DNA of 32,046 nt from an archaeon. GTDB lineage: Archaea > Nanobdellota > Nanobdellia > Pacearchaeales > GW2011-AR1. The DNA lies in the NCBI GenBank assembly GCA_030679115.1, contig JAUXTS010000021.1, forward strand, positions 1 through 32,046, in the 5' to 3' direction. A program made the position numbers. Positions 12,001 to 15,000 of the stretch are shown here, in pieces (positions within the stretch are counted from its first letter, which is position 1; each line of letters opens with the position of its first letter).

Positions 12001-15000
12001 AAAATAAACTGCCATTCTTCCAAAATGAAGAGCAGCAACTTTGTAATCACCCAATGTAATGAATTTTTCATCAGATAAGATTCTTATCGGTATCATTTTT
12101 CCATCATTATATAAATTGATATCATCTTCTATAGAGATTTCTCCCTGCTGTCTTTCCAATTGTCTTTTCATATCTAATCTATGTAATTCTGGAAGATAAG
12201 ATTGTTCAGCTTCAGAAATTATCTGTAGTATCTCCTGAGCATAATCTTCTTGTCTCTGCCAGAATTTATCTAAATCATAACTAAGAATTTGTGTTCTATG
12301 TAGTCGAGGATTTTTTGCAAGGTGTTGTATTAATTCACATAAATGTCTTGTAGCAAAAGTATGTTCACCTAATCTAGCAAATTGTGTAAATGTGCTAAAA
12401 AATCCTGATTCTACTTCCCCATGCGACTCTGTTTCAAGTATTAATGTCACAATAACTAGCCAAATATCTCATTTATAAACTTTTCTATATGTTACTACTA
12501 ATAAATTAGTAAAATTATCTTTTAACGCTTAATCTTAAAAAATTTATCTTCCTAATCTTGATTTTATTACTCCGAATTTTATGATAATTTTTAAGATACT
12601 TAATATAATAAATCTAAATCAAGAGTGTTTTAAAGGTTATTGTCGCATCAATTATCACAACAATTCTTTTAAACTTATTTTATTGCAGAGGGGAATGAAA
12701 ACCTTCTCAAATGAACAATTAACAAGAATAGTCTTAGCAAGGACTCCCCCAAGAGTTTTAGCAAAAGATGAAAACTATGCATTTTATAATCTTAACATGT
12801 ATGGGAATAAAGTTCTCACTTGGCAAACTCCAGAAGAAATTTTTAGGAGCAATTGGAAGGGAGATGTATGTATCCGTTCAAATAAAGGAATTGCAAGAGG
12901 AAGCACAAAATACAATATTCCTCAAGAAAAGCTAATGGAAATTATAGATGCAGAATTTGAATCTAATGGGATGCCTCTAAACACACTAACATTTAATCAA
13001 TCAATGCCTGATGAACATCTATCTATCCAGGGAGAAGTCATGCGCAATCTTGATGGGCTTTGCTTGACATATTCTAAAATAAAAAAACCAATGAATCTCG
13101 CACTCAAGGAAAAAACAGAAAGAGCCAAAGGGTTTAATGCACATCTTATTCTCAAACAGGAATTATGGCCTGCAAGTCTAAATGAATTGGAGAGACTGCT
13201 TGATAGATTTGGAGGCGATTTGACAACCTCTTCTTCTGTCGTTGAATTCAGTGCCTATGATATTGCAGTTGGAGATTCTCCAGGAAGAAATACAGTCATC
13301 TGGGAAGTCAGGGATTATTGATTTCAGTAAGATTTAAAAATACCTTATTCCCCCGATTTATGAAGACGGCCATAGTAACCGTGAAACGCCTGTTCCCATT
13401 CCGAACACAGAAGCTAAGTCGGTTACGTCGGTTGTGTTAGTGTCCGAAAAGACGCGAAACTCCGATGTTGTCTTCGTTATACTCTTTTATTTATAATAAA
13501 ATTATTATTTATACAAAGCTACAGTCAACATCGCTTCCGCAACTTCATGTGCTATTAAACATTTTCTAGGATTAACAGCCTGATAACTACCACAACTTAT
13601 AAACAAAGGTTCTGCTTGATAAGCCCTGACAATTCTTCTAGCTTTACTATATTCAAAATAATCTCTTATCTTATCAATTAATCCCATACAAATTAAATGC
13701 TAATTCTGTTTTTAAATTTATACTTTTTATTTTATCTATGAGAAGTGAATTCTTCAATCGCACCAATAGCTTCTCTTTCATTATTTCTATTAGGATATTT
13801 ATTTTTATATGAACCAATTATTAAATAAGCTTCAACGATTTCATAGGGCACGCAGACTTTAATATCATCAGGCATAGATTCAAATTTTCTGACTATATTT
13901 TTAGATTTTCTATATTTAACATAGTCTTTCAATCTACTAAGCAAATTCATCTTTTCTTTTGATTAAACGAGTTTTTAAACTCTTCTCACTTTTACATATA
14001 ATGAAAACTGCCTTATCAAAAACACAGGCAAAAGAGAAAATAGACTCTTTCTTTCAAGGAGAGTCTTTCACGGCAGAAGAAGTCAAAAAAATTAAAAGAT
14101 TGGCGATGAAATTCAATATTAAGCTCGGAGCATATAGAAAATTATTTTGTAAAAAATGCCTGTCAAAACTGAAAGGAAAATTAAGGATTGCAAAAACCCA
14201 TAAGATTGTAGAATGCGCTTCCTGCGGTTATAAAAATAAGATTAAAATCAGATAATTTACGCTTTTTTAAACCTTCAATCTCGTAAGAGTTGAATGGGTC
14301 AAAAAGACTTAAGCCTTTTTGAACAGAAAAATCTTAGAGCTTTAGATTTTTAAGGCATAAGAAAGCGTTTACGCTTTCTTAAATTTAGAAATTCCAGGCA
14401 GCATTTCTGCATGTCCCAATAGAACCGCTCTGCAGCAATATCTTTCTACACCCAACTCATCAAGAACTTTTCCAGCATCTTCGCCGGCGTCTATTCTTTT
14501 TTTGTATTCTTCCCAAAGATGACCAATTGGTTTTCCGCATGAAAAACATCTAACAGGTATTATCATAATATTATTGCTTAAAGATGCTTTTTAAATGTTT
14601 TTCTTAAAGATAATCTATAAATTTAAAAGATTTAATCTCGATTAGTTGTCGGGGAGGCCCATAGTATAACCGCAGAATATCACATTCGCAATGTGGGGAT
14701 CCGAGTTCAATTCACTTCGACATGTGAATGTTGAAGTTGTCCACGGAACTTGTTCTGTAGCATCGGTGGGCCCATCTTCAAAATCTATATAAACGCTTTT
14801 CCCCATTTCTTAATATGAAAAAAGAGAACTTTTTTGTAAAACATAAATGGACTATTTTAATTTCATTTATTATAGTTCTTATAGCATTATCTCTATCGGG
14901 AATTCTAAAAAAAATAGACTTGCTCATAAATCAGAAAATAATTCTGCTTTATGCCCCATTATTTGATAATATAATGTTTTCATTTATCAATTTAACAAAT

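Follow-up and report, generated by a model that had tools for sequence, protein, structure and literature searches.

A probable archaeal RNase P variant without Rpp29, within a proposed stepwise reduction across the Pacearchaeales

The Rpp21 gene and the other RNase P components

The window, meaning the whole 32,046-nt stretch of DNA that was analysed, derives from an 82% complete bin of 699 kb in 56 contigs, belonging to a family (f1) that we take to be GW2011-AR1. All genomes compared here are metagenome bins. An 84-codon ORF with an ATG start occupies positions 14001-14255 of the + strand and displays, on reading of the sequence, the motif CxxC-x18-CxxC. The features at the locus are as follows.

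13972..13979, strand not assigned: TATA-like box, T5A3, from direct reading of the sequence
14001..14255, + strand: trimmed gene for Rpp21 (RNase P protein component 4 / Rpr2; PF04032, COG2023), 84 aa, from profile, fold and homolog evidence
14019..14111, + strand: N-terminal helical hairpin (residues 7-37), equivalent to the Rpp29-binding part in solved structures
14148..14240, + strand: zinc ribbon with C50, C53, C72, C75, G59, R62 and K80, the predicted RNA-binding face

The T5A3 box ends 21 nt upstream of the Rpp21 ATG and lies 22 nt from where a divergent ORF begins at 13950; it is possibly a two-way promoter serving leaderless transcripts.

The identification of the ORF as Rpp21, proposed in the genome-wide survey's note, is settled. 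No Rpr2 (PF04032) or PRK03954 match was obtained for the 84-aa protein above the curated Pfam or NCBIfam cut-offs, and its link to canonical Rpp21 runs instead via relatives in the order. A profile of 19 Rpp21 proteins from other families of the order recovered the ORF at E 1.2e-12 (runner-up 0.08), and one outgroup Rpp21 of that set matches a solved Rpp21 at E 3e-12. A protein search revealed 176 homologs, the best 120 of which display 56-82% identity; the NCBI-named homologs among these 120 are from Ca. Pacearchaeota or Nanoarchaeota, and 15 of the 120 carry the JGI name “RNase P subunit RPR2”. The Rpp21 family is thus not wholly unannotated, as the survey had described the gene.

The AlphaFold2 model of Rpp21, calculated with 35 homologs as input, comprises three helices and a three-strand ribbon (pLDDT 88). 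Structural similarity search of the model with Foldseek returned archaeal Rpp21 chains (Mja, Pho, Pfu) at all of ranks 1-7 (prob 0.94-1.00, TMq up to 0.70, best E 1.3e-3), while the VIA fold search placed human Rpp21 first (Z 6.6) and yeast Rpr2 second (Z 6.5), scores that are middling when taken alone. These rankings correspond to the Rpp21 fold, with two N-terminal helices, a linker helix and a zinc ribbon. A PDB sequence search using the Rpp21 family profile gave no match, where the fold search succeeded. Cys-50, Cys-53, Cys-72 and Cys-75 are invariant in 35/35 and 34/34 aligned homologs, and Gly-59, Arg-62 and Lys-80 are equivalent to Pfu G73, R79 and R100, respectively; the roles of the zinc-ribbon residues are presented in section 2.3.1 of PMC4919917.

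The same genome encodes an 88-aa Pop5 (C41:4856-5122, minus strand) and a 143-aa Rpp30 (C44:5522-5950, minus strand), both as reported in the survey, together with a 103-aa L7Ae on contig C15; L7Ae was identified in 120/121 genomes searched. The NCBIfam RNase P component 3 models align to Rpp30 only from profile position ~66-69 onwards, revealing that the first part of the barrel (~65 N-terminal residues) is missing. With Pfam, Pop5 is detected in no more than 39/155 genomes of the family, and both the Pop5 and the Rpp21 of this genome are missed, which indicates that these proteins diverge fast. The searches for Rpp29, Pop5 and Rpp30 were consequently repeated with order-built profiles, and these recovered Pop5 and Rpp30 in 151/155 family genomes each, rates that imply bin gaps of about 3% per gene. 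Inventories of RNase P in such genomes are likely mis-scored, since Pfam overlooks their Rpp21 and the majority of their Pop5.

RNase P RNA (RF00373) is widespread in the family (95/104 genomes). Its gene is absent from this bin according to Rfam, a family-built nhmmer profile and motif patterns, as already recognized in the survey. HARP (PIN_5, PF08745), the protein-only RNase P that could in principle cover the function, is encoded in 0/121 genomes of the order (control positive in 4/14 named genomes), so that the survey's view of a widespread RNA and an absent HARP stands.

Absence of Rpp29 and its binding surfaces

The Rpp29 tallies of the survey hold in larger samples. Pfam PF01868 is found above cut-off in 0/151 genomes of the family, in 17/45 genomes from other families of the order and in 111/151 from the phylum. 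Within the order, matches occur in families f2 (1/1), f5 (5/5), f8 (4/4) and f4 (7/24), and in none of the genomes of f3 (0/4), f6 (0/1), f7 (0/1) and f9 (0/5). With the order-built profiles Rpp29 was found in 0/155 family genomes, setting aside two weak matches that are noise (one at E 0.004 with four internal stops, the other at E 0.008). The contrast is internal to this genome, where the outgroup-only profile retrieves Rpp21 at E 1.2e-12 and the best value obtained with Rpp29 profiles is E 0.29-1.3.

The survey had cautioned that a very diverged Rpp29 could be missed, and the absence held when this was addressed. A profile of 31 Rpp29 sequences was run, unfiltered and in six frames, against this genome and three relatives: G238 (one 535-kb contig, in which no terminal overlap was seen), G023 (all three contigs) and G174 (one 575-kb contig, all but 732 nt read; 77% complete by markers). 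The searches were negative, with best E values of 1.3, 0.18, 0.02 and 0.78, respectively. On inspection, the G023 match appears to be an L23-like ORF, the best local matches a histone-like ORF, L21e and L23, and a match in G210 a PRC-barrel protein. Seventeen further Pfam matches fell below cut-off; the two inspected both displayed a NAC-like small ORF on reading, and several of the other 15 contain internal stops or lie within long ORFs. The 134 small ORFs common to G238 and this genome scored ≤6% against the Rpp29 profile in hhalign, compared with 98.5-99.2% for four truncated true Rpp29 proteins aligned to a profile built without them.

The position between SUI1 and S17, which the survey reported as closed, is indeed closed: on contig C7 the distance from the SUI1 stop to the S17 frame is 2 nt with a GTG start or 32 nt with an ATG start. 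Among 80 related SUI1 loci, which could not be assigned to families, 73 have S17 downstream and the other seven lack S17 within 1.2 kb. The gap is too tight for a gene in 58 of the 73, and all 15 of the wide gaps hold Rpp29. Rpp29 has very probably been lost from the family altogether.

The Rpp29 interface on Pfu Rpp21 comprises E16, R17, L21, A25, R38 and Y39 (PMC4919917, section 2.3.3). Conservation at these positions was evaluated in an alignment of 64 Rpp21 proteins (two more were left out for lacking one Cys), including 35 from the family, of which 30 are the best-scoring and five are divergent. An equivalent of Y39 is present in 11/12 Rpp21 proteins from Rpp29-positive genomes, 3/17 from Rpp29-negative genomes of other families and 0/35 from the family itself. 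The span from L21 to A43 is 21-23 residues in 11/12 Rpp29-positive sequences versus 13-16 in 35/35 of the family's own, and the N-terminal hairpin of the family's Rpp21 is 7-8 residues shorter than in Rpp29-bearing relatives (8 residues in the Rpp21 described here). In Pfu numbering, R17 is replaced by Lys, L21 by Phe, R38 and Y39 by two Glu residues and A43 by Ile, while A25 is deleted. The L21 position is aromatic in 32/35 own-family sequences, and the A43 position is mostly Ile. Arg at position 17 is rare in all groups (2/12, 0/17 and 3/35) and thus does not discriminate.

Rpp29 itself is shortened in family f4, where 7/7 proteins are only 59-73 aa long and lack the C-terminal strand and helix. 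In the Mja structure the C-terminal tail of Rpp30 adds a strand to Rpp29, joining the two modules (PMC6565675). Among the Rpp30 sequences compared, a long tail occurs in the single one from f5, the only sequence from the Rpp29-complete side of this contrast, and in 0/11 of the others shown.

RNase P RNA, P12 and loss of Rpp21

RNase P RNAs from 10 Rpp21-positive and 10 Rpp21-negative genomes were aligned to the RF00373 model, and both T-loops, the catalytic regions and P7-P11 align in 20/20, in long- and short-P12 RNAs alike. In Rpp21-positive RNAs of the family the segment between the T-loops (P12) is mostly 55-57 nt. Twenty-four distinct 56-nt segments display four GA steps, two 3-nt bulges and a shared 2-bp helix; 10 of the 12 pairs tested are found in 24/24 segments, with many compensatory changes, and one in 23, while the four GA steps recur in 23, 24, 16 (the rest being AA) and 24 segments, respectively. 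As judged from sequence, P12 of the relatives is similar to the L7Ae-binding double K-turn of Pfu, Mja and Mma, which accommodates two L7Ae and has a shared helix of 3 bp (PMC5499556). P12 is at least 55 nt long in 50/50 examined RNAs of relatives with intact Rpp21, the K-turn pairs having been counted on 24. The P12 of the present genome, whose RNA gene is absent from the 82%-complete bin, would be that of its closest relatives. A pattern scan for K-turns outside P12 was positive in 62/63 RNAs and is uninformative on L7Ae binding by short-P12 RNAs.

Rpp21 is itself missing from ~40% of the family. The Rpp21 profile matches 95/155 family genomes, of which 93 are intact after removal of G246 (noise) and G070 (frameshifted). 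The G246 match is not a remnant, since it overlaps an L44e-like ORF and is without synteny with congeners, and G246 was scored as Rpp21-less; G070, which has a long P12, is in neither of the P12 comparison groups. Rpp21 was found in none of the genera g88 (0/14), g121 (0/9), g157 (0/4) and g150 (0/3), all of which keep Pop5 and Rpp30. A broader Rpp21 profile, which detects 11/21 other-family genomes at E 5e-12 or better, revealed nothing better than E 1e-3 in 39 of the 60 negatives. The survey's proposal that the family runs RNase P with Rpp21 alone on the specificity domain therefore applies to ~60% of its genomes.

The two traits, Rpp21 and P12, were compared across the family. P12 was read in 50 of 59 RNA-positive sampled genomes with intact Rpp21, 20 of the 50 having been added mostly for their short or weak Rfam matches, against bias. 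In Rpp21-less genomes P12 is a stub of 14-29 nt in 26/36 and long in 10/36, and the bin gaps account for only some of these 10. Congeners differ in both traits, G142 having Rpp21 and a 56-nt P12, and G246 no Rpp21 and a 27-nt P12. In a phylogeny of 79 RNA cores from which P12 had been excised, short P12 requires 10 changes (f8 included), at least eight of which are forced by well-supported branches, and a single origin of short P12 in the family is rejected (AU p 6e-7). A hexaloop motif, found capping a P3 branch as well, explains part of the near-identity of the P12 stubs. When corrected for kinship, in a test run before G246 was added, the link between P12 and Rpp21 is represented by seven independent pairs, four to five in the same direction and none opposite (p 0.06-0.125, not significant). 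Two f8 genomes with a short P12 plus both Rpp21 and Rpp29 are exceptions to a strict rule.

A different reduction appears in the sister family f9. A family-built profile found Rpp30 in 0/5 f9 genomes, and Pfam found none in the four tested. In G174, where Rpp21, a diverged Pop5, L7Ae and a K-turn RNA are present, the best Rpp30 score is E 0.72. Controls are weaker for this apparent absence of Rpp30 from f9 than for that of Rpp29 from the family.

A probable modular RNase P and its relation to known types

RNase P of this genome probably consists of the RNA with Pop5, Rpp30, Rpp21 and L7Ae and without Rpp29, organized as two modules. The survey had counted three proteins; since L7Ae, accepted as the fifth subunit in archaea, is encoded and the closest relatives' RNAs retain the double K-turn, four are likely. 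In characterized systems Pop5 and Rpp30 associate with the catalytic domain and accelerate cleavage (PMC6565675; PMC4919917), and they would occupy that domain here. Rpp21 touches the T-loops and P12 and holds L7Ae (PMC6565675; PMC4919917), and Rpp21-L7Ae is predicted to form a separate module on the kink-turned P12 and the T-loops of the specificity domain. In the archaeal and human enzymes it is Rpp29 that connects the two halves, and Rpp21 has been described as folding on binding Rpp29. Here Rpp29 may first have been cut to its barrel core, as in f4, and then deleted, so that no protein would any longer span the two RNA domains and the protein chain would be split in two. Rpp21 may have repacked its shortened hairpin, with an aromatic residue at L21 and Ile at A43, so as to fold alone, and its remaining task would be to keep P12 and L7Ae positioned against the T-loops gripping the elbow of the tRNA. 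Rpp21 likely works without Rpp29. Native MS of the Mja enzyme includes a species of RNA, two L7Ae and Rpp21 that lacks Rpp29 (PMC9371926), although this may be a gas-phase or handling product.

Compared with the five-protein type A/M enzymes (Methanocaldococcus jannaschii, PDB codes 6K0A/6K0B; Pyrococcus Rpp21-Rpp29, PDB codes 2ZAE/2KI7), the variant encodes Pop5, Rpp30, Rpp21 and L7Ae and keeps the Rpp21 fold and zinc ribbon, and its relatives have an RF00373-type RNA with both T-loops and the P12 double K-turn. In contrast, Rpp29 is not encoded, the Rpp21 hairpin is about 8 residues shorter and devoid of R38/Y39/A25, and Rpp30 lacks ~65 N-terminal residues and the C-terminal docking tail. 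Pop5 has 88 residues here and 134 in Mja (PMC13462272).

A persisting Rpp29, located outside the ribosomal operon and diverged beyond detection, is highly improbable. Pfam does miss Rpp21 and most Pop5 in the family, the outgroup locus L315 has Rpp29 ~800 nt away from SUI1, and Samanta 2016 cautions that an RPP scored as missing may have diverged (PMC4919917); however, order-built profiles recover Pop5, Rpp30 and Rpp21 and never Rpp29, no similar small ORF is found among those shared with G238, the Rpp29-binding residues are lost from Rpp21 and f4 provides a truncated intermediate. Replacement of Rpp29 by an unrelated protein that now bridges the Pop5-Rpp30 and Rpp21-L7Ae modules is very unlikely, as no candidate gene was seen in the slot, the hairpin is shortened and not re-faced, the docking tail of Rpp30 is gone and Pop5-Rpp30 assemble on Mja RNA without other proteins (PMC9371926). 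Such a bridge would accord with the place of Rpp29 as the key link between modules in the Mja structure (PMC6565675), with the good conservation of the remodelled Rpp21 hairpin and with the existence of small conserved family proteins that could not be named by eye.

Two other readings concern the function of what remains. Rpp21 might have left RNase P for another RNA-binding role, the enzyme consisting family-wide of RNA, Pop5 and Rpp30, a possibility raised by its absence from ~40% of family genomes, 10 of which have a long P12. This is very unlikely indeed, considering that an intact Rpp21 coexists with a stub P12 in 0/50 family RNAs, that the congeners G142 and G246 switch Rpp21 and P12 state together and that the zinc ribbon and basic residues are kept. 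In Nanoarchaeum equitans, tRNAs are made without leaders. A decay of RNase P because tRNAs are made leaderless here too would fit the shortening or loss of several subunits across the order and genome sizes of 0.4-1.4 Mb, but is extremely improbable given the presence of the RNA in 95/104 and of Pop5 and Rpp30 in 151/155 genomes each, the strong covariation of the RNA and the alignment of T-loops and catalytic regions in 20/20 RNAs.

The modular enzyme without Rpp29 would be one stage of a wider series. We lean, with modest confidence, towards pacearchaeal RNase P being a natural dismantling series in which all of the following steps took place. Rpp29 would have been truncated and then deleted family-wide. 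Rpp21 and the P12 double K-turn would next have been lost together, several times independently; as P12 shrinks to a stub, Rpp21 would become dispensable and disappear, so that the RNA would have no helpers beyond Pop5 and Rpp30 and no evident site for L7Ae. In the sister family Rpp30 would have been lost instead, and Pop5 would be the sole protein on the catalytic domain, much as bacterial RNase P has a single protein. If this is true, both textbook pairs are separable in living cells and these are the simplest archaeal-type holoenzymes. An Rpp29-less family with co-eroded partner surfaces offers natural minimal enzymes of two to four small proteins that can be rebuilt in vitro, making testable the contribution of each subunit and the trading of roles between RNA and protein.

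Partial subunit sets were recorded previously. In Table S2 of Samanta 2016 (PMC4919917), Rpp29, Rpp21 and L7Ae are the only subunits detected for Thermoplasma volcanium, Ferroplasma, Picrophilus and several Nitrosopumilus, and the same work scores Ca. Methanomethylophilus alvus as RPP29 N / RPP21 Y and Nst1 also as a partial set. Its authors foresaw variants of this kind and were unable to distinguish loss from divergence (PMC4919917). The resemblance lies in the detection of only some subunits, including single entries with Rpp21 and without Rpp29; those entries are isolated, whereas here the loss is family-wide and backed by controls, the slot is closed, the interface is eroded and a truncated intermediate exists. 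“Pacearch” gives no match in the supplement of Samanta 2016 (PMC4919917), Daniels 2019 scored DPANN only for one or more proteins, PMC10966300 treats Rpp29, Rpp21 and L7Ae as one bridge, and the main text of a 2026 complete-genome preprint (bioRxiv 10.64898/2026.05.13.725050) contains no RNase P term. Full-text searches of literature outside subscription journals revealed no description of lineage-wide Rpp29 loss or of P12-Rpp21 coupling in DPANN. The probable archaeal RNase P variant without Rpp29, within a proposed stepwise reduction across the order, would be new.

The closest parallel is type T RNase P of Thermoproteaceae (Pyrobaculum), where Rpp21 is lost, Rpp29 is kept and subunits have 98, 180 and 84 aa (PMC13462272). 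Both enzymes have shortened proteins, four in type T and probably four here, and have lost one member of the Rpp21-Rpp29 pair; in type T the disappearance of Rpp21 goes together with that of the RNA part it binds, and the Rpp21-less relatives show the same. The coupled loss of Rpp21 and P12 would thereby repeat, several times in an unrelated lineage, a link so far seen only in Pyrobaculum. The patterns are otherwise mirror images: type T drops Rpp21 and most of the S-domain, whereas here Rpp29 goes first and the T-loops stay, with T-loops and P7-P11 in 20/20 RNAs instead of a single-stem S-domain devoid of the CR II region. The Rpp21-less relatives lack both Rpp21 and Rpp29, with only P12 cut. 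The supposedly obligate Rpp21-Rpp29 pair was thus already known to be broken in Pyrobaculum (PMC13462272), contrary to the survey, and only the direction of the breakage, with Rpp29 lost and Rpp21 kept, is new. Nor is this the smallest protein set known, as also suggested there: type T likewise has four proteins, smaller detected sets are found in Table S2 of Samanta 2016, and same-family relatives have only Pop5 and Rpp30 besides L7Ae. In total length, the specific proteins amount to 315 aa here and 362 aa in P. aerophilum (PMC13462272).

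Stub P12 helices and a hexaloop hairpin in RNase P RNA

In about a quarter of the RNA-positive genomes sampled from the family (26 of 95), Rpp29 and Rpp21 are both absent and P12 is reduced to a stub of 14-29 nt from which the double K-turn is missing; Pop5 and Rpp30 are retained in these genomes. In 38 of 63 family RNAs a P3 branch is capped by a hairpin of 4 bp whose hexaloop reads UU(A/G)ANU, compared with 33 of 3150 shuffles and none of the 16 RNAs examined from other families. The same motif terminates 19 of the 26 short P12 stubs, and it may provide a tertiary contact or a cap specific to this lineage. 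Representative loci are:

Stub P12 without Rpp21, in genomes G023, G204, G149, G087 and others: L142-L161, L182-L194, L491
Hexaloop on the P3 branch and short P12 of family RNAs: L149, L154, L068

Two short-P12 RNAs, L159 (genome G222, genus g89) and L190 (genome G243, genus g24), cluster in the RNA tree with genera g150 and g157, away from their own genera, a placement that would reflect either mis-binning or an RNA gene replaced by horizontal transfer. G074 and G108 (L488 and L493) each contain two matches to RNase P RNA, the second G108 copy presenting a different P12 of 70 nt.

Rpp21, Rpp30 and Rpp29 in other families

Rpp21 and Rpp30 look nearly mutually exclusive in a clade of f9, f3 and f6 genomes. 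Rpp30 was undetected in G174 (f9, a single contig; L433-L461), G158, G163, G168 and G177 (f9), G152 (f3) and G155 (f6), where the K-turn RNase P RNA is kept and Rpp21 was identified in six of the seven genomes. The f3 genomes G159, G164 and G170 display the opposite pattern, with Rpp30 present and Rpp21 absent.

In family f4, Rpp29 is shortened to 59-73 residues, lacking the C-terminal strand and helix, and its genes occupy the customary Rpp29 slot (L022, L023, L025-L029); no Rpp29 was found in the remaining 17 f4 genomes searched. Loss of Rpp29 may recur beyond the order, since near-complete genomes of other families in the phylum sample also lack a Pfam match to Rpp29 (genomes with a match: f12, 4/16; f17, 0/4; f33, 0/2).

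Genes near Rpp21, Rpp30 and Pop5

Two small tandem ORFs lie divergent from Rpp21:

13505-13687, minus strand, 60 residues
13732-13950, minus strand, 72 residues

They resemble each other (30% identity, pairwise E-value of 1e-9), and a Pfam search with both returned no match. In L139 (contig C44 of G000), L136, L138 and L140, Rpp30 is located apart from Pop5, its neighbour in the ancestral locus, and immediately upstream of a long gene read from its sequence as PheRS alpha. A gene near Pop5 on contig C41 is likewise read as a beta-CASP-like nuclease. The stretch directly preceding Rpp21 in two relatives (L052 and L060), judged from its translation, looks like a putative 5S rRNA.
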